44,454 nt of DNA from Escherichia phage Snoke, in the sequence record MK931441.1; one strand, given 5' to 3'. Under the pieces are notes generated by a model, which was not told where the DNA came from, ran no database searches, and worked only from the letters and a program-made list of their open reading frames with translations. Position 1 is the first letter of the stretch; every line of letters begins with the position of its first letter. Positions 5,731 through 26,213 of this stretch are shown here, one piece after another. The position numbers and the translations under genes are program-made.

Positions 5731-5760
5731 AAAGGCCCCATAATGGGGCCTTAGTTTTAT
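5731..5760. terminator. bidirectional intrinsic terminator
   Basis: AGGCCCCA-TAA-TGGGGCCT hairpin flanked by A-run upstream and T-run downstream, between convergent genes. Confidence 0.7.
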
Positions 5761-6278
5761 TTAAATCGCGCGGGCATTAACACCATAAAGGCCGTGTTTG
5801 AAAATTGTATTTTGCATCCTCTGGTTTGGTCCTGGAAATCGAAACGAGCAATTTCATTTTTGTATGCCTTAGAAATCTTGTACGCGTCTGCCAAATAGCG
5901 CAGAGTGAACCCTATACTACCGACAACACCCGGTGTGATGTGCGCCACGCGTCTCCAGTCAGGAAAGTTTCCTTCTACAACATCTACCGGAAGTGTACAT
6001 ATAAGCGCACGATTATCGTCATAGAAAGATACACTGCCGTTGTCGTGGTCTACCTCTGCGTAGTTAAATTTAGAAGGCTCTCTCCCTTTAATGTCGACGA
6101 GAACCCCTTTCTCAACGTTCGTCTTCACATTGTCGCAGAACAATCTATGACCGTCCGTAGACACTATCAATCCTTCAGGGTCTATGTAAAAAGCGTTCAA
6201 ATAGTAGCGAACATCATTTTTAGCCCTGCATATTTTCGCCCCTACATACGCAGGGAAAGTAATTACTGTAGTAACCAT
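5757..6278 (-). CDS. truncated DnaN-like protein (beta sliding clamp homolog, domain II plus partial domain III)
   Basis: 173 aa; DVRYYLNAF...STDGHRLFC, EGNFPDWRRV, IGFTLRYLADA and C-terminal FMVLMPARFK match, in order and spacing, E. coli DnaN motifs DVRYYLNG...ATDGHRLAVC, DGRFPDYRRV, IGFNVSYVLDVLNA and YVVMPMRL; strong SD AGGAGG 6 nt before ATG. Confidence 0.6.
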   Translation of the reverse strand: MVTTVITFPAYVGAKICRAKNDVRYYLNAFYIDPEGLIVSTDGHRLFCDNVKTNVEKGVLVDIKGREPSKFNYAEVDHDNGSVSFYDDNRALICTLPVDVVEGNFPDWRRVAHITPGVVGSIGFTLRYLADAYKISKAYKNEIARFDFQDQTRGCKIQFSNTAFMVLMPARFK

Positions 6279-13810: not shown

Positions 13811-14000
13811 TGTTAACTCTCTTAAATCTGGCTATGCCTGACTCGTTAATGTTGCCTATTTCAAAGAAGCTGCGATATTTAGGCGAATACATTCTTACAT
13901 CGCCATTCTCTAGGGTGACCCCTTCATATACAGCACCTACTTCGAATCCATTTTTCTCCGCGTACGGACTCACATCGGTGCATTCATACATGTCTTTCAT
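13800..14000 (-). CDS. hypothetical protein (accessory island)
   Basis: Minus-strand ORF, coupled to upstream phosphoesterase gene. Confidence 0.3.
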   Translation of the reverse strand: MKDMYECTDVSPYAEKNGFEVGAVYEGVTLENGDVRMYSPKYRSFFEIGNINESGIARFKRVNSDK

Positions 14001-15127
14001 CCAAGCATCTCCGGTGAAATAGTTAAACGTGCGACCTCGCCATATTCGGCGCTATAAGTAATTACATTTGCACTACGACCTGACATCCATCCGCCGCGAG
14101 AGGCGTAGGCGTCTTTAGCCGCCAGGGTGCGGTGTTGCTCAACAACCATGTTACGGCTTTCTACAATCTTCTGATGGTGCAGGTGGCCTACATGGGCGTA
14201 GCTGTAAACACTCTCGCCGAACGCTTTGCGGAACTTGGCAATCATAACCGGTTCGATAGCGTCGAATCGTGCCTTATGCCCGTGGTGAAAGAACAGCGTC
14301 GTTTTGCCGTGTTGCACCATCTTGTAAACATCTGGCGACGTGTCGACGAACACCCGCGGCTCGTTGTCGTACAGCGTACTAAACATCTCAGCTAACCAAA
14401 TCATTCCGCTTTCGTCGTGGTTTCCTTGCACGATAAGCAAGCGAACATTTTTATGCTTAACCAGCGCCATACCGACAACACGGCGTACCATACGAATCAT
14501 GTAGCGGACCAGTTTCTGATAACGAGTGTCCGCATCAAGAACATGACCACTCGCTGGCGTAACCGCATCCAGACTATCGAAGTGCGCGAAGTCACCCAGC
14601 AGGTTAATAACCCCAGTTCCTGCATCTGGTGCTTTCTGAAACGCCGCATCGAACCATCGGGAGAACAGGTCTTCTGCAATCTTCATGTCCCAGTCGTCGC
14701 CGCTCTCGTCGGCCCAGGCCAGCATACCGAGATGGAAATCAGATACAGTGTAAAGATTAAGTAGTTTATCGTCACGTTTGGCGCGAACGGCTTTAACAGG
14801 CGCAACCGGCGTAATCTCTGACTTCATGCCCTCGATTACAGCTTTCATCAACTCGACCTGACGTTCAGCGTCAGTGTCTGTCTTAACCCATTGCAACTTA
14901 GTGTTGCCGAACTCGTCCACAAGCGACGACGTTCCTTTAATCTTGTAGCCGTCCGGGACAAGATGGCTAACGTCACGACCGTGACCTACGCCTTTCTTCG
15001 CCAGCTTCGCTTTACGGATACGAATAACTCGGTCTGAGATGCCGTATTTACGGGATATGTCGATAATCTTTGTTCCGGCGTTCAATTCTTCCTGTAACTG
15101 TTCGTCGGTTATTTTAATCCGGGCCAT
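13997..15127 (-). CDS. HTH domain + calcineurin-like metallophosphoesterase
   Basis: Phosphoesterase motifs in order: SDFHLG, GDFAHFD, GNHDE, HHGH, GHLHH; N-terminal HTH (ITDEQLQEELNAGTKIIDISRKYGISDRVIRIRKAK); SD GAGGAAG upstream. Confidence 0.7.
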   Translation of the reverse strand: MARIKITDEQLQEELNAGTKIIDISRKYGISDRVIRIRKAKLAKKGVGHGRDVSHLVPDGYKIKGTSSLVDEFGNTKLQWVKTDTDAERQVELMKAVIEGMKSEITPVAPVKAVRAKRDDKLLNLYTVSDFHLGMLAWADESGDDWDMKIAEDLFSRWFDAAFQKAPDAGTGVINLLGDFAHFDSLDAVTPASGHVLDADTRYQKLVRYMIRMVRRVVGMALVKHKNVRLLIVQGNHDESGMIWLAEMFSTLYDNEPRVFVDTSPDVYKMVQHGKTTLFFHHGHKARFDAIEPVMIAKFRKAFGESVYSYAHVGHLHHQKIVESRNMVVEQHRTLAAKDAYASRGGWMSGRSANVITYSAEYGEVARLTISPEMLG

Positions 15128-15166
15128 GCTTTACTTCCTCGTGTTTAGGATTTGTCCTATACTAGC

Positions 15167-15358
15167 TCACTTCTCTTTGACATTCGAGTTGCAAGCCCAG
15201 ATTAAAATAAATACCCACGGCAGCAGAACCCAGCCAAGAAACAGATTGGCCATGAATATCGCTAATTTCGCTTTATGACCCCGCATATGGGCCACTAAAA
15301 ACGGGATAAAATAAACTAAAACGATAATGATTAAGAAGAACATAGTAATACCTGTCAT
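15167..15358 (-). CDS. small membrane protein, superinfection-immunity-like
   Basis: 63 aa from internal ATG with SD AGGAG; two hydrophobic segments and motif AHMRGHKAKLAIFMANLFLGWVLLPWVFILIWA; ORF track start at 15496 would include the promoter. Confidence 0.5.
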   Translation of the reverse strand: MTGITMFFLIIIVLVYFIPFLVAHMRGHKAKLAIFMANLFLGWVLLPWVFILIWACNSNVKEK

Positions 15359-15399
15359 GGTGTAGCTCCTGTTCGAGTTAACATTGTTGGTGTAAGTGA

Positions 15400-15428
15400 A
15401 TAGTATCCTATTATGTTGGGGTGCGCAA
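15400..15428 (-). promoter_or_regulatory. sigma70-type promoter (class II) for minus-strand accessory island
   Basis: Minus-strand TTGCGC-17-TACTAT with spacer accccaacataatagga, identical to spacer at 37984-38000. Confidence 0.55.
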
Positions 15429-15536
15429 GTAATGTGATAGAATAATTTTGCGCCTAGTGTCGCACACGAAAAGCGGGTGGTTCCCGTCTGGCGCATTTAC
15501 CATTAACCTGTAACCTCTTAACCAAAGGATTAAAGA

Positions 15537-20570: not shown

Positions 20571-20932
20571 ATATTAATTCTTATACAGGGTTGCCGTACG
20601 ACTTTCGCCGTCGTAATTGCTGGCACCATGTCCGTAACGTTCGTGCGGATGTAGGCCTCTTTACGCCTGAGTTTAACGTCGCTTCGCCAACACAGATTAA
20701 CGACGCCTTCGAAGAAGGCCATAAAGATACTAAAGGCCTTGTACGCGTAGAAACTCCGCAAAACTTCGATGCCGTGCTGATGGCAACACGGCACAGAAAC
20801 CGTGTAATCTGGCACGCCGGAGTATACTATGACGGTATGGTTAGTCATTGCGAGCTGGCGAGTCGCCAGGTACGGTTAGACCGTCTGGAAGACTTGCGCG
20901 AAACTTATGCGGAGATAGAATTTTGGCGCTGA
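20567..20932 (+). CDS. tail assembly protein, NlpC/P60-like (K-like, putative)
   Basis: Cys-His pair in NCWHHVRNV and later H residues; position between minor tail and tip genes. Confidence 0.4.
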   Translation: MNINSYTGLPYDFRRRNCWHHVRNVRADVGLFTPEFNVASPTQINDAFEEGHKDTKGLVRVETPQNFDAVLMATRHRNRVIWHAGVYYDGMVSHCELASRQVRLDRLEDLRETYAEIEFWR

Positions 20933-23478
20933 CATTACATTACACCCGTAACGAAGACGGTACTTTCGACCGCGAACGGCACAACGTACCGCCGATGGAA
21001 TACGTCGTCGCTAACATCCCCGACGGGGTGCCTGTACGTATTTACCGTGGCGAGATCGGCGAGGACACGGAAGTAACTGAAGATTTCGAAGCGCTGAAAG
21101 AAGACGATGTTTTCCATATTATCGAAGGCGCTGGTGGCGGTGGCGGTTTTCTGGGTAAACTCCTGGACCCTTTGGGTGTGCTTAAATTTGTTACCAAGTT
21201 GATTTCTCCGTCGCAGAAAACGCCTAAAACGAGTTTAGCGAACCAGCAGGCTGAGTCCCCCAACAACAGCCTGACGGACCGAAACAATAAACCCCGTCCA
21301 TATGAACGGTCGTATGATATTTGCGGCAGAGTCCAGACTATCCCTAATGACCTCATGACTACCTATAAAATATTCGATGAATCTGGTCGCATTATTGAAT
21401 ACGGATACTACGATGCCGGTCGTGGGTATCTGGACATCAAGGCCGAAGATATTACCGACGGCGATACTAAGGTACAGGAGATTACGGGGGCCTCTGTCGC
21501 GGTGTACGCGCCGTTTACATCCCCCAACAATACAAATACCCCGCAGCTTCTGGTGGGGGAACCTATCAATCATAATCTTTATATAACTATCGCGTCTAAT
21601 GAAGTAAATGGAGCCGTTCTTAAAGCCCAGAACGATATTCGGGTCAACCCAAGCGACACGGGCCGCGTGAGATATGACTCTGCTACAAAAATTGGATACC
21701 TGTATGACGACACGGGGGATTCTGGCTTCGCGGAAATATTATCTGTTGGTGACACCGCGTCGTTCAATAACTTTGACGTTCCGGACGTAACAAATACCAA
21801 CGGCAACTTTCGTGTTCTTTATGTCGATAACTTCGAGCTGCGGGTCGACACCGGCGGCGCGTCTAATTGGGCTGCTTTAGGCCCAACCACCTATTCACTT
21901 TCCCAGAGAAGTGACACGTGGGTAGGCCCCGTGGATACGTATGAAAGAACATTAACCGACTGGACCACCTTAAACCGCCTGGAAGTTGAACGCGTAGTAG
22001 CCAACATCGCTGCCGCTAACGGTATGTATAAAGACAACGGCAGTAAATTGCGTACGTCGGTAACTATTGAACTCCAATACCAACTACTCGATGAAACCGG
22101 TGCCCCATACGGGAGTATCTATTCAAAACAGGCCGTTATATCTGGTCGGTCCGCCGACTACACCGGAGTTACTATTTACGCCGACTTGCCCATGAGGTCG
22201 AAAGTTAGGGTACGTGCCCGTCGTGTTACCAACCTGGACCTTGATTTCGAGGGCACCGTGGTAGACGAGGTTTCCTATATCAACCTTTACGGTCAGGTCC
22301 GTGACACTACGCCACATTACGGCAATCGTACTACCGTACACTCGGCACGTAAGCAGACGCCGCGGGCCGCAGAGATTAAGCAACCACAGTTACGTATGGT
22401 CGCCACAGAGATGGTGTACAAATACCTCGGTAATGGTGTATTCGACACCGTAATGACACCGAATACTCAGGCCATTCAATCATTAATACGTCTCGCCCGT
22501 GACCCAGTAGTAGGTAATCTCAACCTAACAACATCCAATATGGACAAGTTGTTAGCGACTCAGACCGAGATTGAGAATTATTTCGGTAACGTGGAGGCGG
22601 GTCAATTCTGCTACACTTTTGACGACTATAAAATGACCATGCAGGATATCATCAGCACAATAGCCGATGCTATTTTCTGCACTCCATATCGTAAAGGGCA
22701 AGACATATTACTGGATTTCGAGCGCCCGCGTATGGGGCCGGAAATGGTATTCACACATCGAAGTAAGACAACAGCTTCGGAAAAGTGGACGCGCACATTC
22801 AACGACGCTCAGGTATACGATAGTCTTAAGTTCTCCTACATCGACCCAGATACTAACGTAAAAGAGACCATCAGCATTCCCGCCGAGGGCGGTGTTAACA
22901 CAGAAACGTATGACTCTAAAGGTATACGTAATTATCGTCAGGCGTACTGGGCGGCGTACCGTCGGTACCAGAAGAACCTGTTGAAGAAGGTGACGGTATC
23001 ATTCACGGCGACAGAAGAAGGGGTTTTTGTGCTTCCAGGACGGGCAATAAGCGTAGTTAAAGGCTCGCGAGTAGCACCTCAAGATGGTTATGTCGTTGCC
23101 GTTAATGGGCTTACCCTTACTCTTTCTCAGCCGGTTACGTTTACTCCGGGTGATGACCACTCACTGATTCTTAAGAAGAGAGACGGCGGAGTTCAAAGTG
23201 TTGCTGTTGTGCCTGGAAGCCACGACCGTGAAGTGGTTATGCTCTCTGCGCCTCAAGAGGCGATATACACAGGGAATAGCGCACTAAAAACTGAGTTTTC
23301 ATTCGGTAACGAAGCAAGGCATAATGCTCAGATGATTCTTGTTTCTACAGTTGACCCCGGAGACGACAGAACGGTTAAGATTACCGGGATTAACTATGAA
23401 GCAGATTTCTATAAATACGACGGCGTCGCGCCATACGGCAGCGGTTTCTCCGACGGATTCAGCGATGGTTTTAATTAA
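20848..23478 (+). CDS. tail tip / host specificity protein (J-like; start uncertain)
   Basis: 876-aa ORF; Gly-run GGGGGFLGKLL near N-terminus; overlaps upstream gene by 85 nt so true start is probably internal. Confidence 0.55.
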   Translation: MRAGESPGTVRPSGRLARNLCGDRILALTLHYTRNEDGTFDRERHNVPPMEYVVANIPDGVPVRIYRGEIGEDTEVTEDFEALKEDDVFHIIEGAGGGGGFLGKLLDPLGVLKFVTKLISPSQKTPKTSLANQQAESPNNSLTDRNNKPRPYERSYDICGRVQTIPNDLMTTYKIFDESGRIIEYGYYDAGRGYLDIKAEDITDGDTKVQEITGASVAVYAPFTSPNNTNTPQLLVGEPINHNLYITIASNEVNGAVLKAQNDIRVNPSDTGRVRYDSATKIGYLYDDTGDSGFAEILSVGDTASFNNFDVPDVTNTNGNFRVLYVDNFELRVDTGGASNWAALGPTTYSLSQRSDTWVGPVDTYERTLTDWTTLNRLEVERVVANIAAANGMYKDNGSKLRTSVTIELQYQLLDETGAPYGSIYSKQAVISGRSADYTGVTIYADLPMRSKVRVRARRVTNLDLDFEGTVVDEVSYINLYGQVRDTTPHYGNRTTVHSARKQTPRAAEIKQPQLRMVATEMVYKYLGNGVFDTVMTPNTQAIQSLIRLARDPVVGNLNLTTSNMDKLLATQTEIENYFGNVEAGQFCYTFDDYKMTMQDIISTIADAIFCTPYRKGQDILLDFERPRMGPEMVFTHRSKTTASEKWTRTFNDAQVYDSLKFSYIDPDTNVKETISIPAEGGVNTETYDSKGIRNYRQAYWAAYRRYQKNLLKKVTVSFTATEEGVFVLPGRAISVVKGSRVAPQDGYVVAVNGLTLTLSQPVTFTPGDDHSLILKKRDGGVQSVAVVPGSHDREVVMLSAPQEAIYTGNSALKTEFSFGNEARHNAQMILVSTVDPGDDRTVKITGINYEADFYKYDGVAPYGSGFSDGFSDGFN

Positions 23479-23490
23479 AGAGGACTCTAT

Positions 23491-25863
23491 ATGTCAAGCG
23501 GATGCGGTGACGTTTTAAGCCTGGCGGATTTACAAACCGCCAAGAAGCACCAGATTTTCGAAGCCGAGGTTATTACCGGTAAATCCGGCGGCGTAACCGG
23601 TGGTGCGGATATCGATTATGCGACCAACGCGGTTACTGGTCAGATGCAGAAGACTCTCCCTGCCGTGTTGCGAGATGCGGGGTTCTTCCCGGCATCTTTT
23701 GATTTCACTACCGGCGGGACATTATCGGCTACAGACCGCAATAAGGTCGTTTATGACCCAGTAAGCATGGCCTGGTATTCATGGGGCGGTTCTTTACCAA
23801 AGGTTGTCCCCGCGGAAACTAACCCGTTACTGGACACAAATTGGAAACCGCAAACAGACCCGAATCTACGCAATGACCTTGAAAATGGCATGTACAGAAC
23901 GGACGCAACCGCCGTTAAATATGTTCCTGGGGTGGTTATAAACAGCACAACAGATAACCGGGCCGCATTGTATGCATTCCCTGGCAAAGTTTATATCCCA
24001 AAAGACGTCCAGCTACGCTGTAATTTCCTGCCAGATGATGATGTAACAAAATTTACTGGTGAAGGAAAAATTCTCACGCGCGACCCATGGGGTAACGAGC
24101 ACATTTTCGACGTTTCACTGGCAACTCATGGGAGCAAATACACTGCATTCAACGTAATAAACCAGTTCGCTCGCCGCAATACGCGATGTCGTGTTGGTAT
24201 CATTGGTGACTCAATCACAGACGGCGCATACGGAACCGACTGGGTAGCCAACCCAACTGATTCAAACGGGGACCTTTCTTCGACTAATTACGACCACAAT
24301 GGCAATGGTGGCGCAGGTTCCTGGTTCCGTACCTTCACGGACTGGCTTAACCAATTTACAAAAAATGGTGCTTTCATCTTTAAAGCAGAAAACTGCGCAT
24401 CTTCTGGAAAGCGACTTATTGACGGGTGGGCTAATCGTAATTTCGACCATGGCTTTTTCAAAAACACTGCATACGGGAATGTTCCACCGGATGTCTGCTT
24501 TATGTCTATGGGCGTTAACGATAACGGCCAACTGGATACGTTAGGGTTCGATCAGTACTTATTCCGTTTTGAGCAGTTTATCCGTAAAGCATGGGGCTAT
24601 GGATGTGCTGTCTGCGTTGTTTCAATGAACCAGAATGGCTCACAATGGGCGGCTCTCGAGGCATCAATCAAGAAGCATATTGAACGCCTGTTCCCCGCGG
24701 TAGAGTTCCTCGATCTCTCTCAGGCAGTAACTGAGATGTACAGAGATGTCGGTAGCTACACCTTAGAAGAAATTTGCCGTCGTCCTACCGATGGCTCTTT
24801 CGACTACACGCACTTTGCGCCCCTTGGTCACCAATATATTGGCGCTTATGCCGCGACCAAGGTTATGCCTTATCGCGTCCATAAGGCCGCAAAAGGGAAT
24901 AATTTCCTGCCTGTGTCGCCTAACGATATCCAACCATTCGGGTACCCTTCCGGCAGTACATATGACGTTTCTATGGAGCGACTTAGCGGAAATTCATACC
25001 TGAATGGGCTTACCGGATGGGGCGTGGTTAAGCCCGCTACTGAAAATTTAACCATACGATATTTTGTCTGGTGTGATACTTCTGATATATCAATGGTTAT
25101 TTTTGAGCCATATAACCCTACTTACATTGGTTCCGGGCGCGCAAATACTGTATCAATACGCCAACAAGATACCCGTAATACAGCATATATCTCCGGTAAT
25201 ATCGCGAGTAATGGCGTCTCATCGTTTACGAACAAACTCACCACACGAACTGGGATCCTTAGAAAAGGACTGAATAAGATTGAGATTGTTTACGATGGTA
25301 CGCCGTCGAAAGTATACCCTCCCGCTCTGTTATTCAGAGGAGAGCTGAACGAATCATGTTCTCAAAACACCTCTGTATACTTGGCTGCAAATGCGATAAA
25401 GGGTGTTTACGGTCAATTAAGGGATAAAGCTGATTTGTTATTGTCATATGCGGCTGAAACCGCAAATGATGAAGCGCCGGATATGTACGGCGCTACTAAG
25501 TCATCAAATGTTCAAAATGTTGTCCTGTCAGCTTTGCCCGTTGATTGTGGTGTTGTTTTTTACTACAAACCCACGTCACAAAGTGGAGTTGTCGCCAAGC
25601 GAGTGGCGACTGGCATCGAGATCTCGACGATGCTTTTTGGCGCACTTACTGTTATCGGCACCTTGACTTGCGATGTGACCGGCGAAGTCATGCTCACAGC
25701 CGGCCTGGCACCTTCAGTACCTACAATAACAGTTAAACCCACTACCGGCGGCACTGTTCAACAAACTGTTACTGGTCACTCTGGCGGCAAGATAGCCCTG
25801 ATTAACAAGGGGGCTTCCGGTAACACAATAACGGTTAAATCTTCATCTCAATTCGTCATTTAA
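23491..25863 (+). CDS. tailspike / tail fiber with SGNH (GDSL) esterase domain
   Basis: SGNH blocks GIIGDSITDG (catalytic Ser), GVNDN, DYTHFAPLGH (Asp-His) at about 24180-24840; last gene of virion module. Confidence 0.7.
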   Translation: MSSGCGDVLSLADLQTAKKHQIFEAEVITGKSGGVTGGADIDYATNAVTGQMQKTLPAVLRDAGFFPASFDFTTGGTLSATDRNKVVYDPVSMAWYSWGGSLPKVVPAETNPLLDTNWKPQTDPNLRNDLENGMYRTDATAVKYVPGVVINSTTDNRAALYAFPGKVYIPKDVQLRCNFLPDDDVTKFTGEGKILTRDPWGNEHIFDVSLATHGSKYTAFNVINQFARRNTRCRVGIIGDSITDGAYGTDWVANPTDSNGDLSSTNYDHNGNGGAGSWFRTFTDWLNQFTKNGAFIFKAENCASSGKRLIDGWANRNFDHGFFKNTAYGNVPPDVCFMSMGVNDNGQLDTLGFDQYLFRFEQFIRKAWGYGCAVCVVSMNQNGSQWAALEASIKKHIERLFPAVEFLDLSQAVTEMYRDVGSYTLEEICRRPTDGSFDYTHFAPLGHQYIGAYAATKVMPYRVHKAAKGNNFLPVSPNDIQPFGYPSGSTYDVSMERLSGNSYLNGLTGWGVVKPATENLTIRYFVWCDTSDISMVIFEPYNPTYIGSGRANTVSIRQQDTRNTAYISGNIASNGVSSFTNKLTTRTGILRKGLNKIEIVYDGTPSKVYPPALLFRGELNESCSQNTSVYLAANAIKGVYGQLRDKADLLLSYAAETANDEAPDMYGATKSSNVQNVVLSALPVDCGVVFYYKPTSQSGVVAKRVATGIEISTMLFGALTVIGTLTCDVTGEVMLTAGLAPSVPTITVKPTTGGTVQQTVTGHSGGKIALINKGASGNTITVKSSSQFVI

Positions 25864-25867
25864 ATAC

Positions 25868-25893
25868 AAAAGGCCCCGAAAGGGGCCTTTTCT
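25868..25893. terminator. bidirectional intrinsic terminator between convergent modules
   Basis: AAA-AGGCCCC-GAAA-GGGGCCT-TTTCTC. Confidence 0.75.
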
Positions 25894-26027
25894 CTACTTT
25901 TCTAATAACTTCTCCAGTACAAACGCCAGTTGCGCATTGGCGGCGTCTCTCTGCTGCCGTAGTCGTAGAACCTCCTCTTCGAGTCCCTTGATACGTTTTT
26001 GCAATGCTGGAATCGGGGCTGTGATGT

Positions 26028-26213
26028 TCATTTCTTACCTTCGCTTTTCTTGAAACTGCGCTTTATGTCCGGCAGCGTGTAGCATCGTGACTTTTCGTAT
26101 TTACCGTCCGAGCTTACCAAAACAAAGCTGTTGCCGTCTTTCGATATGTACTCGATGGTGAAAGTATTGAATGAGTGTATGCTGTATATTTCATCGTCAA
26201 CATTAAGTTTCAT
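26028..26213 (-). CDS. hypothetical protein
   Basis: ORF from track at end of minus-strand operon. Confidence 0.3.
   Translation of the reverse strand: MKLNVDDEIYSIHSFNTFTIEYISKDGNSFVLVSSDGKYEKSRCYTLPDIKRSFKKSEGKK

Follow-up and report, generated by a model that had tools for sequence, protein, structure and literature searches.

The nearest characterised relative of the tailspike considered here is gp63.1 of phage G7C (Gamaleyavirus, an N4-like podovirus), a crystallised O-antigen acetyl esterase (PDB 4QNL; Prokhorov et al. 2017, as cited in PMC10743462 and PMC13123978). According to the G7C reports, gp63.1 deacetylates the O-polysaccharide of Escherichia coli 4s without cleaving it; the phage needs this activity to infect, and mutation of wclK makes the host resistant (PMC10743462; bioRxiv 10.1101/542787). 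The 4s O-polysaccharide is described as O22-like, with a glucose side chain and a WclK-dependent O-acetylation (PMC4728585). Kagunaviruses require surface glycans and display narrow host ranges tied to the O-type of the host; their tailspikes are located directly downstream of the J-like gene, as found in the BASEL work (PMC11990801).

The window, i.e. the whole stretch of 44,454 nucleotides that was analysed, comes from a virulent siphovirus of the genus Kagunavirus, close to Schulenberg, and encodes its only receptor-binding tailspike. The reading proposed for this protein, with a probability of about 0.8, is that of a gp63.1-type O-antigen acetyl-esterase tailspike with an O22-type acetylated substrate, by whose deacetylation the host would be recognised.

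Gene position, anchor and exchanged body

Escherichia phage Schulenburg (or Schulenberg; Kagunavirus) is closely related to the window, with 97.7% identity across 95% of a 24.5-kb query (window positions 20000-44454); the two are not identical. The tailspike is 99.8% identical at the nucleotide level and 99.7% at the aminoacid level to the Schulenburg 'tail spike protein', while those of Shashou and Sciku are 97% identical to it; it also matches PHROG 21878 (tail fiber, E 1.7e-150). The isolation host of Schulenberg, Shashou and Sciku is E. coli 4s (PMC6763661, PMC6776780, PMC6753286). The genome announcements of these three phages and of Penshu1 contain no discussion of the tailspike; the GenBank record of Schulenburg already carries an SGNH hydrolase domain on the 99.7%-identical protein, thus the idea of an SGNH tailspike is not new.

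The initial annotation had described the last virion gene as coding for a 790-aa protein with three SGNH motifs, and both the open reading frame list and the sequence agree with this description (Table 1). The gene follows that of the J-like tip protein and closes the + strand morphogenesis block, converging on the - strand replication genes; this position, right after the J-like gene and last in the tail module, is the one found in Kagunavirus. The start of the J-like gene was obtained by moving the Schulenburg annotation (20813..23368) by +110. The GC-rich terminator lies just past the stop codon of the tailspike gene and has a stem of 10 bp, 6 of which are GC pairs. A terminator scan identified a + strand hairpin only; bidirectional function may be proposed by analogy with Schulenburg and Shashou, in which terminators are annotated on both strands at the corresponding site.

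Table 1. Coordinates of the tailspike gene, its modules, its catalytic blocks and the flanking elements in the window
Feature	Position	Strand	Basis or remark
J-like central tail fibre / tip attachment protein	20923..23478	+	End from ORF list; directly upstream of the tailspike gene
RBS, AAGAGGA	23478..23484	+	6 nt before the ATG; read from the sequence; RBS annotated at the Schulenburg equivalent
Tailspike gene	23491..25863	+	ATG start; 790 aa plus stop codon; ORF list
N-terminal virion-anchor module, aa 1-132	23491..23886	+	Typical of Kagunavirus and Jerseyvirus; Pfam, aa identity
Exchanged receptor-enzyme cassette (apparent), ~aa 141-790	23911..25863	+	Sliding DNA identity, BLASTP; common to prophage tailspikes
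gp63.1 'domain 3', neck/connector, aa 145-208	23923..24114	+	Pfam PF21562 Gp63_3rd_G7C, E 9.6e-30, full profile length
SGNH/GDSL esterase domain, ~aa 209-470	24115..24900	+	Alignment to the 4QNL esterase domain; PF13472 below cutoff, aa 238-448
SGNH block I, GIIGDSITDG, aa 236-245	24196..24225	+	Nucleophile Ser241, codon 24211-24213
SGNH block II, Gly306 (oxyanion hole)	24406..24408	+	NCASSGKRL aligned to gp63.1 NCSVSGKKL
SGNH block III, GVNDN, aa 341-345, Asn343 (oxyanion hole)	24511..24525	+	Aligned to gp63.1 GWNDS
SGNH block V, DYTHFAPLGH, aa 438-447	24802..24831	+	Contains the triad residues Asp438 and His441
Galactose-binding-domain-like beta-sandwich, aa 483-615	24937..25335	+	Pfam PF21988 G7C_GBD, E 7.9e-09
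C-terminal concanavalin-A-like (lectin/CBM-like) beta-sandwich, aa 617-790	25339..25860	+	
Hairpin terminator, AAAAGGCCCC-GAAA-GGGGCCTTTT	25868..25891	.	Lies where the virion and replication modules converge; read directly from the sequence

The N-terminal module is typical of the genus. Residues 71-112 match Pfam Tail_spike_N (PF18668), and aa 1-130 share 66-82% aminoacid identity with other Kagunavirus (Guernseyvirinae) tailspikes whose bodies are unrelated; at the DNA level the 5' part of the gene is common to 109 phage records. In the AF2 model the pLDDT is low for aa 1-60. A homologous anchor (~65% aminoacid identity over aa 1-131) is found in the endosialidase tailspikes of K1G, K1H and K1ind, which belong to the same genus and occupy the same gene position, but whose body is unrelated to that of the window tailspike. 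The public label 'tailspike endosialidase' of the Shashou protein derives solely from anchor similarity to K1ind1 and is misleading: neither sialidase nor intramolecular-chaperone Pfam domains were found in the window tailspike, whose predicted structure consists of SGNH and beta-sandwich domains, and the annotation can now be corrected.

Beyond the anchor, the relationships of the gene change. In a sliding DNA comparison with the Kagunavirus fEg-Eco19, identity is 77-97% over roughly the first 180 nt of the gene; it then falls to the random level by about nt 420 and is back at 90-93% directly past the tailspike stop codon. Conversely, similarity to an Enterobacter hormaechei prophage gene starts at about gene nt 420, with 75-97% identity, and aa 143-790 are 82% identical to the tailspike of an E. 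coli P22-like prophage (BLASTP). The terminator marks the right-hand edge of the swapped segment, since it is there that DNA identity to other Kagunaviruses resumes. Judging from these sequence profiles, the tailspike body (~aa 140-790) was exchanged horizontally, as one cassette.

Domain architecture and catalytic residues

A phmmer search against the PDB retrieved 4QNL with E 3.3e-98 over aa 72-616, and the fold predicted for the monomer matches the same structure across the whole body (Foldseek E 1e-66, TMq 0.74). The domain order is that of gp63.1: Tail_spike_N, gp63 domain 3, SGNH, galactose-binding-like domain and C-terminal beta-sandwich, with similarity to 4QNL in both sequence and fold over the full length. 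The connector, located before the esterase, is 62% identical to its G7C counterpart. The galactose-binding-like domain is all-beta, with pLDDT >89 (AF2), and the C-terminal sandwich corresponds in structure to the C-terminal domain of gp63.1, but cannot be recognised as such from its sequence. A beta-helix (pectate-lyase-like) depolymerase was also considered and rejected: the model contains no long beta-helix, and the TM values with CBA120 TSP4 and K2-2 TSP are ≤0.14.

The SGNH/GDSL domain proposed by the initial annotation is borne out by profile search, by alignment to 4QNL and by the predicted fold. Strands and helices alternate over aa 233-458 with pLDDT >85 (above 90 across the SGNH domain; AF2), giving the three-layer alpha/beta/alpha fold in the model and in Foldseek, which matches the 4QNL esterase domain and also the PAF acetylhydrolases 3DT6, 1BWR and 1ES9 with probability 1.00. 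The alignment of the catalytic Ser, Asp and His was the point on which the call could be checked by profile search, and it holds, also against the crystallised esterase gp63.1. SGNH blocks I, II/III and V are all present; GDS, GxND and DxxH align residue for residue with 4QNL in phmmer, block I falling on G7C GIIGDS (Ser276) and block V, the sole DxxH of the window tailspike, on gp63.1 DTTH (Asp470/His473). In an alignment of 37 sequences reaching down to ~30% identity, G239, D240, S241, G341, N343, D344 and H441 are kept in all homologues, D438 in 36 and G306 in 35. The three SGNH motifs are, on the evidence of the 4QNL match and of this alignment, not chance matches.

The Pfam GDSL_2 model (PF13472) scores 23.5 bits, below its gathering cutoff of 32.9. 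However, G7C gp63.1 itself reaches just 15.6 bits with the same model, also below the cutoff, and barely exceeds the threshold of PF00657 (26.7 vs 23.6); thus generic GDSL models are weak for the gp63.1-type subfamily. The sub-cutoff score, together with the presence of two carbohydrate-binding-module-like domains after the esterase, could be taken to mean that the SGNH domain is mainly a binding scaffold, with catalysis absent or dispensable, and that the two C-terminal lectin-like sandwiches recognise the receptor. Such a role is highly improbable. Invariant Ser, His and oxyanion Asn, with Asp and Gly kept in at least 35 of the 37 homologues, point to selection for catalysis, and within the cassette conservation is highest in the SGNH domain, which shares 95% identity with the E. 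hormaechei prophage homologue (the sandwiches share 87-89%) and 38% with G7C; in addition, phage G7C needs the activity for infection (PMC10743462).

Prophage homologues, O22 clusters and the receptor

Homologues of the cassette are found in P22-like E. coli prophages (XYEH3934, STEC711, G3 and STK78-E; 80-82% identity) and in siphoviral E. hormaechei prophages (85%). In the E. hormaechei prophages and in the P22-like E. coli prophages located at argW, gtrC, gtrB and gtrA come immediately after the tailspike gene; overall, gtrABC adjoins the tailspike in three of the four prophage contexts examined, the exception being STK78-E. Seroconversion genes beside an O-antigen tailspike are a classical arrangement. 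Between the E. coli and the Enterobacter prophages, GtrC shares only 24% identity, suggesting that the two host O-antigens are modified differently.

Among 5426 complete E. coli genomes, a close homologue of the tailspike is present in four and an O22-family wzy in ten, and all four tailspike carriers are among these ten (hypergeometric P 5.8e-12, to be read bearing in mind that these four may be partly related by descent). The carriers have at least two integration sites and three alleles, therefore they are not one clone. The association was computed on the prophage homologues, which are 80-82% identical to the window allele, and for XYEH3934 the O-antigen type was taken from the cluster in the genome itself, the serotype being absent from its source paper. 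In the O22 cluster, wzy and a glycosyltransferase gene flank an acyltransferase. A collinear O22-like cluster is found in E. hormaechei, with 48-67% aminoacid identity per gene and 67% for the acetyltransferase.

Three lines of evidence, i.e. the gtrABC neighbours, the restriction of E. coli homologues to O22 genomes and the 4s isolation host of the near-identical phages, thus point to an O-antigen of O22 type. The initial annotation had left the choice between O-antigen and capsule; the former is upheld by these data, whereas capsule is not, and the most likely receptor is an O-acetylated O22-type O-antigen. A target outside the O-antigen, be it capsule or a different exopolysaccharide (K antigen, colanic acid, ECA), has precedents, since the Kagunaviruses K1G and K1H carry capsule-specific tailspikes on the same anchor (PMC11990801; PMC10408124) and Klebsiella prophage SGNH receptor-binding proteins, which are active esterases, are linked to capsule loci (PMC13123978). 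It is nevertheless quite improbable for the window tailspike: close homologues adjoin O-antigen-modifying gtrABC cassettes, those of E. coli are confined to O22-cluster genomes among the 5426 complete ones, and the nearest characterised relative targets the O-antigen of 4s, the host from which the near-identical phages were obtained (PMC6763661, PMC10743462).

It can also be asked whether an O-antigen esterase is O22-specific, or whether the O22 link reflects the host range of one prophage lineage, the window enzyme acting on another acetylated O-type or acyl position. The distance of the window allele from the O22-associated ones, the stronger divergence of the C-terminal domain and of the galactose-binding-like one, both likely to bear on specificity, and an association resting on four E. 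coli genomes would fit with this. The possibility is rather improbable, since Schulenberg (99.7%), Shashou and Sciku (97%) were isolated on the O22-like 4s (PMC6763661, PMC6776780, PMC6753286), the prophage association is highly non-random and independent of these isolations, and E. hormaechei, the other homologue-rich host, has a collinear O22-like cluster.

With an O22-type O-antigen as receptor, infection can be pictured as follows. The genus-typical anchor (aa 1-132) would hold the tailspike at the tail tip beside the J-like protein, and the tailspike, presumably a trimer, would bind the LPS O-polysaccharide. Ser241, Asp438 and His441, with Gly306 and Asn343 forming the oxyanion hole, are predicted to hydrolyse an O-acetyl ester of the O-unit, leaving the backbone uncut; cycles of binding and deacetylation would then, in the manner proposed for G7C, move the tail tip down through the O-antigen until it reaches the outer membrane. 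The acetyl group of the substrate would be added by the acyltransferase that the O22 cluster encodes, which in E. coli 4s is WclK, and host range would be set by the presence of an O22-type O-antigen and by its acetylation. For the window tailspike, esterase activity, the position attacked on the substrate, processivity and trimer formation are putative, and substrate position and specificity could differ from those of gp63.1, given an identity of only 35-38%.

Significance and comparison with known systems

The finding is correct but ordinary, since the gp63.1 esterase type is already known. It leaves current understanding unchanged: the mechanism class is established, and receptor-binding proteins of the SGNH type are by now known to be frequent. 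A broader proposal, tentative and somewhat doubtful, is that the window tailspike belongs to a second, deeply diverged lineage of O22-specific deacetylases (~35% identity to G7C and Penshu1), in which one cassette is found across virulent and temperate siphoviruses, P22-like podoviruses, E. coli and E. hormaechei, and tracks the O22-type acetylated cluster rather than host taxonomy. If this is true, the phage or its cassette could extend host range across genera to E. hormaechei with an O22-like cluster, and the deacetylation-driven infection described as a 'molecular motor without cutting' would reach long-tailed siphoviruses. Esterase tailspikes, first known from one N4-like phage, emerge from the analysis as a portable cassette of siphoviruses and podoviruses, virulent and temperate, in at least two enterobacterial genera. 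The analysis also provides a testable receptor prediction, an O22-type O-antigen with a cluster-encoded O-acetyl group, for coliphages that have been sequenced and are uncharacterised. For phage therapy and typing, loss of O-acetylation alone could confer resistance, as for the wclK mutants and G7C.

The same strategy of deacetylation in place of depolymerisation is found in the O-polysaccharide deacetylases of the Pectobacterium phages PP99 and Possum and in Klebsiella prophage SGNH fibres (PMC10743462, PMC13123978), and the tailspikes of the N4-like Pectobacterium phages CB1, CB4 and Nepra are 33-35% identical to that of the window; these Pectobacterium and Klebsiella proteins differ in hosts, in substrates (capsule in Klebsiella) and in accessory domains. 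A gp63.1-type esterase body with the GDS motif is also present in gp46 of Penshu1 and Pisces, T7-like Kayfunavirus phages whose host is E. coli 4s (PMC6753287, PMC6763662). These proteins belong to the G7C lineage, with 50% identity to gp63.1 and ~35% to the window tailspike, and have a T7-type N-terminus.

The prophage tailspikes of P22-like E. coli elements and of E. hormaechei have the same length as the window protein, intact catalytic motifs and 80-85% identity over aa 143-790. Their anchors differ: in the E. coli prophages a P22 Head_binding domain (PF09008) is found, in Enterobacter a divergent domain of the Tail_spike_N type. Moreover, the prophage hosts of the cassette are temperate, whereas the window phage is of the virulent type and lacks gtr genes.

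With gp63.1 the window tailspike shares the full domain architecture, with ~36% identity overall, 38% in the SGNH domain and 17% in the C-terminal domain, which, unlike that of gp63.1, gives no match to PF22245. Esterase activity is demonstrated for gp63.1, to which the window tailspike is likened by sequence and fold. The two proteins also differ in their placement on the virion: gp63.1 is part of a branched complex in a podovirus and is attached via a second tailspike, gp66, whereas the window tailspike is the single one of a siphovirus, carried by a Kagunavirus anchor beside the J-like tip protein.

Gene context, catalytic residues and fold of the tailspike

The initial annotation had predicted a tailspike with an SGNH/GDSL esterase domain as the last virion gene; the ORF and all three SGNH motifs quoted for it were found in the translated sequence (see table). 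The position is also correct, because the tailspike terminates the plus-strand morphogenesis block, in which the tape-measure gene is followed by distal tail genes, a J-like tip protein and the tailspike itself, converging on replication genes encoded on the minus strand. Elsewhere in the window, an inverted gene island (13997-15496, minus strand) breaks the plus-strand tail module; three small ORFs, annotated in the Kagunavirus Schulenburg (also spelled Schulenberg), lie 3' of its phosphoesterase, and the genome announcement mentions an Imm-like protein for the same phage. The putative sliding clamp is on the opposite strand within the head gene block, and its size and position are unusual for a clamp.

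Features of the tailspike gene, its product and other loci (nucleotide positions refer to the window unless a locus is named)
Feature	Position	Strand	Remarks
173-aa protein	5757-6278	-	labelled 'DNA polymerase III sliding clamp' in Schulenburg
Calcineurin-like phosphoesterase	13997-15127	-	inverted island
T4 Imm-like superinfection immunity protein	15167-15496	-	inverted island
Shine-Dalgarno AAGAGGA	6 nt 5' of tailspike ATG	+	directly after stop codon of preceding gene
Tailspike gene	23491-25863	+	790 aa, ATG start
Tail_spike_N, PF18668	aa 71-112		Pfam
G7C gp63 domain 3, PF21562	aa 145-208		Pfam, E 1e-29
GIIGDSITDG	aa 236-245		SGNH motif
GDSL_2	aa 238-448		Pfam, sub-threshold (23.5 vs 32.9 bits)
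GVNDN	aa 341-345		SGNH motif
DYTHFAPLGH	aa 438-447		SGNH motif
G7C galactose-binding-like domain, PF21988	aa 483-615		Pfam
Receptor-enzyme cassette	~23911-25863		anchor to terminator
Strong hairpin terminator	25868-25891		3' of tailspike
61-aa ORF	26028-26213	-	within 25894-26213, in place of the Schulenburg HNH gene
gtrC-gtrB-gtrA cassettes	L002 12413-15131; L005 10935-13641; L013 7935-10641		directly 3' of prophage esterase tailspikes

Among solved structures, the best relative is gp63.1 of the N4-like coliphage G7C (PDB 4QNL; E 3.3e-98 across aa 72-616), which matches the GDS, GxND and DxxH motifs at every residue. In an alignment of 37 homologues, with identities as low as ~30%, the Gly-Asp-Ser of block I, the Gly, Asn and Asp of block III and the His of block V are kept by all, the Asp of block V by 36 and the Gly of block II by 35. 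The predicted catalytic set is Ser241, Asp438 and His441 (Ser276, Asp470 and His473 in gp63.1), with Gly306 and Asn343 as putative oxyanion hole. An AlphaFold2 model built from the same alignment (mean pLDDT 84.6, with most of the body above 90 and low values for aa 1-60 of the anchor) has 4QNL as its top PDB match (Foldseek E 1e-66, TM 0.74, 815 aligned columns), and other SGNH enzymes, such as PAF acetylhydrolase, are also retrieved. Thus, the profile search, residue alignment and structure prediction called for by the initial annotation uphold the esterase domain, and the full gp63.1 architecture is conserved despite ~36% overall identity. The next Foldseek ranks for the full-length model, PDB 9D84 and 9D81 (TM 0.32-0.38), are recently solved tail proteins, Gp48/Gp49 of Shigella flexneri phage B2 and Gp82 of Moo19, which may share anchor or sandwich domains with the modelled tailspike.

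Borders and distribution of the receptor-enzyme cassette

DNA identity with the Kagunavirus fEg-Eco19 is 77-97% 5' of the tailspike gene and over its first ~180 nt, falls to the random level by about nt 420, roughly where similarity to the Enterobacter prophage gene sets in, and recovers to 90-93% right past the stop codon, at the terminator. These changes delimit an exchanged cassette, running from a genus-conserved anchor to the terminator, a layout in keeping with published work in which receptor-binding domains are swapped while their flanks are conserved (PMC10408124). At the protein level, the Enterobacter homologue is 15% identical over aa 1-70, 37% over aa 71-132, 84% in the connector, 95% in the SGNH domain, 87% in the GBD-like domain and 89% in the C-terminal domain; for gp63.1, the values from connector to C-terminus are 62, 38, 28 and 17%. 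A role of the SGNH domain in binding only is disfavoured, since the catalytic residues are invariant and no other part of the cassette is as well conserved as the esterase domain.

Relatives of the body are detectable in only 18 of 50,697 phage records: the Kagunaviruses Schulenberg, Shashou and Sciku, Aeromonas phage ST4 (43%; tail spike, L015 2060-4459; host Aeromonas hydrophila), which is the closest outside Kagunavirus, G7C (38%), Pectobacterium N4-like phages (33-35%), the T7-like Penshu1 and Pisces (34-35%), one Kuttervirus-size phage (34%) and two records of Aeromonas phage ZPAH34 with a weak partial match (26% across one third of the query). In a large protein database, Enterobacter hormaechei chromosomes abound in the closest relatives (also 790 aa; 88-90% over the body); there the gene is the last of the tail genes in a siphovirus-type prophage, with gtrC-gtrB-gtrA directly behind it. 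The E. coli versions bear a P22 head-binding N-terminus; in strains XYEH3934 and STEC711 the P22-like prophage lies at argW, with gtrCBA and the integrase after the tailspike, and STK78-E has a 95%-identical allele in a P22-like prophage at another integration site, without gtr. Another Guernseyvirinae-like contig joins the Kagunavirus anchor to a variant body (domains 68-81% identical, full length 76%). With only 24% identity between GtrC of the Enterobacter prophages and its E. coli prophage counterpart, the two probably glucosylate different positions.

Schulenburg is 97.7% identical over 95% of the 24.5 kb searched (20000-44454); the window phage is thus a close relative but a separate isolate. 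Against Schulenburg, the tailspike shows 99.8% identity in DNA and 99.7% in protein; against Shashou and Sciku, the gene shows 97.5-97.6% DNA identity, and the protein body 96.8-97.1%. Schulenburg carries, directly 3' of the tailspike, a free-standing HNH endonuclease that the window lacks, a homing endonuclease between a 45-aa ORF and an SNF2-type helicase (L001, the Schulenburg locus, 22404-23029); the helicase of Shashou contains an intein. The junction, beside the tailspike cassette, looks like a hotspot of selfish elements. The Shashou orthologue (MK931440.1, L007 1501-3873; 97% identical) was labelled 'tailspike endosialidase' from BLASTp similarity to K1ind1; the label is wrong, because that similarity is restricted to the shared N-terminal anchor and the body is an SGNH esterase.

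The O22-type O-antigen as probable receptor

A tailspike adjoining gtr genes is a hallmark of O-antigen-specific temperate phages, and the O-antigen locus of XYEH3934 was therefore inspected. The locus is a wzx/wzy cluster of the 'O22 family', in which an acyltransferase gene separates wzy from a glycosyltransferase gene. Among 5426 complete E. coli genomes, only ten have the O22 wzy, and the four with the prophage esterase tailspike all belong to these ten (hypergeometric P 5.8e-12); the tailspikes fall into three alleles and their prophages occupy at least two integration sites, which argues against a single clonal event. Outside E. coli, the nearest relative of the O22 Wzy (53% identity) is annotated 'O22 family O-antigen polymerase [Enterobacter hormaechei]', and its locus (L011 6248-14191, GCA_053833835.1) is collinear with the E. 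coli cluster (L010 3159-11078); amino acid identity is 48-67% across all eight serotype-specific genes, with 67% for the hexapeptide acetyltransferase, which suggests an acetylated O22-type O-antigen common to both species. The next-closest Wzy homologue is from Aeromonas veronii (P0123, 52%); considered with phage ST4, the esterase and polymerase families may be distributed in parallel.

Independent support comes from the literature, in which E. coli 4s is the isolation host of Schulenberg, Shashou and Sciku (PMC6763661, PMC6776780, PMC6753286) as well as of Penshu1 and Pisces (PMC6753287, PMC6763662); 4s is a horse isolate, on which G7C was also found. In PMC4728585 and bioRxiv 10.1101/542787, its O-polysaccharide is described as O22-like with an additional glucose side chain and O-acetylated by WclK; the glucosylation might derive from such a gtr-bearing prophage. 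PMC10743462 and PMC13123978 state that gp63.1 deacetylates this polysaccharide leaving the chain uncut, that its activity is essential for G7C infection and that wclK or rough mutants are resistant. The genomic association and the isolation host both point to an O-acetylated O22-type O-antigen as the most likely receptor. Of the O-antigen or capsule initially proposed, the former is favoured by gtr context, O22 association and 4s host; a capsule as esterase target is disfavoured by the first two. Recognition of another O-serogroup is likewise disfavoured, as phages with 97-99.7%-identical proteins were isolated on 4s.

Proposed mechanism and known esterase tailspikes

The observations made here cover homology, conserved residues, the borders of the cassette and genomic associations, and the reading proposed, with a probability of roughly 0.8, is that the tailspike is an O22-type O-antigen esterase driving traversal of the O-antigen layer by the tail tip. 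The tailspike, presumably a trimer, would be held by its anchor beside the J-like tip protein; its body would bind the O22-type O-polysaccharide and Ser241/His441/Asp438 would hydrolyse an O-acetyl ester, so that repeated cycles could carry the tail tip across the layer, in line with the model put forward for G7C (PMC10743462). Host range would be set by O-type plus its acetylation, which is consistent with the narrow, O-type-bound ranges of Kagunaviruses (PMC11990801).

Pairwise comparison separates two deep esterase lineages: G7C gp63.1 and Penshu1 gp46 (50% identical to each other) form one, and the window phage, Schulenberg, Shashou and Sciku the other, together with the prophages of O22 E. 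coli and E. hormaechei (80-85% identical to the window protein); identity between lineages is only ~35%. Therefore, three unrelated virion types from 4s, N4-like, T7-like and Kagunavirus, carry esterases of gp63.1 architecture.

The genome announcements of Schulenberg, Shashou, Sciku and Penshu1 do not discuss the tailspike domain; the domain-level observation was already public, since the GenBank note on the Schulenburg tailspike records 'tail spike and hydrolase InterPro domains SSF52266 and IPR040775' and an HHpred match. PMC13123978 now describes receptor-binding proteins of the SGNH type as widespread, and this kind of tailspike is known, gp63.1 having been crystallised and characterised and a near-identical protein carrying the domain annotation. 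To this the present analysis makes modest additions. It delimits the cassette, assigns a fold to the C-terminal domain, documents gtr genes beside prophage homologues and their association with the O22 cluster, describes a parallel O22-like cluster in E. hormaechei and recognises a second esterase lineage on 4s.
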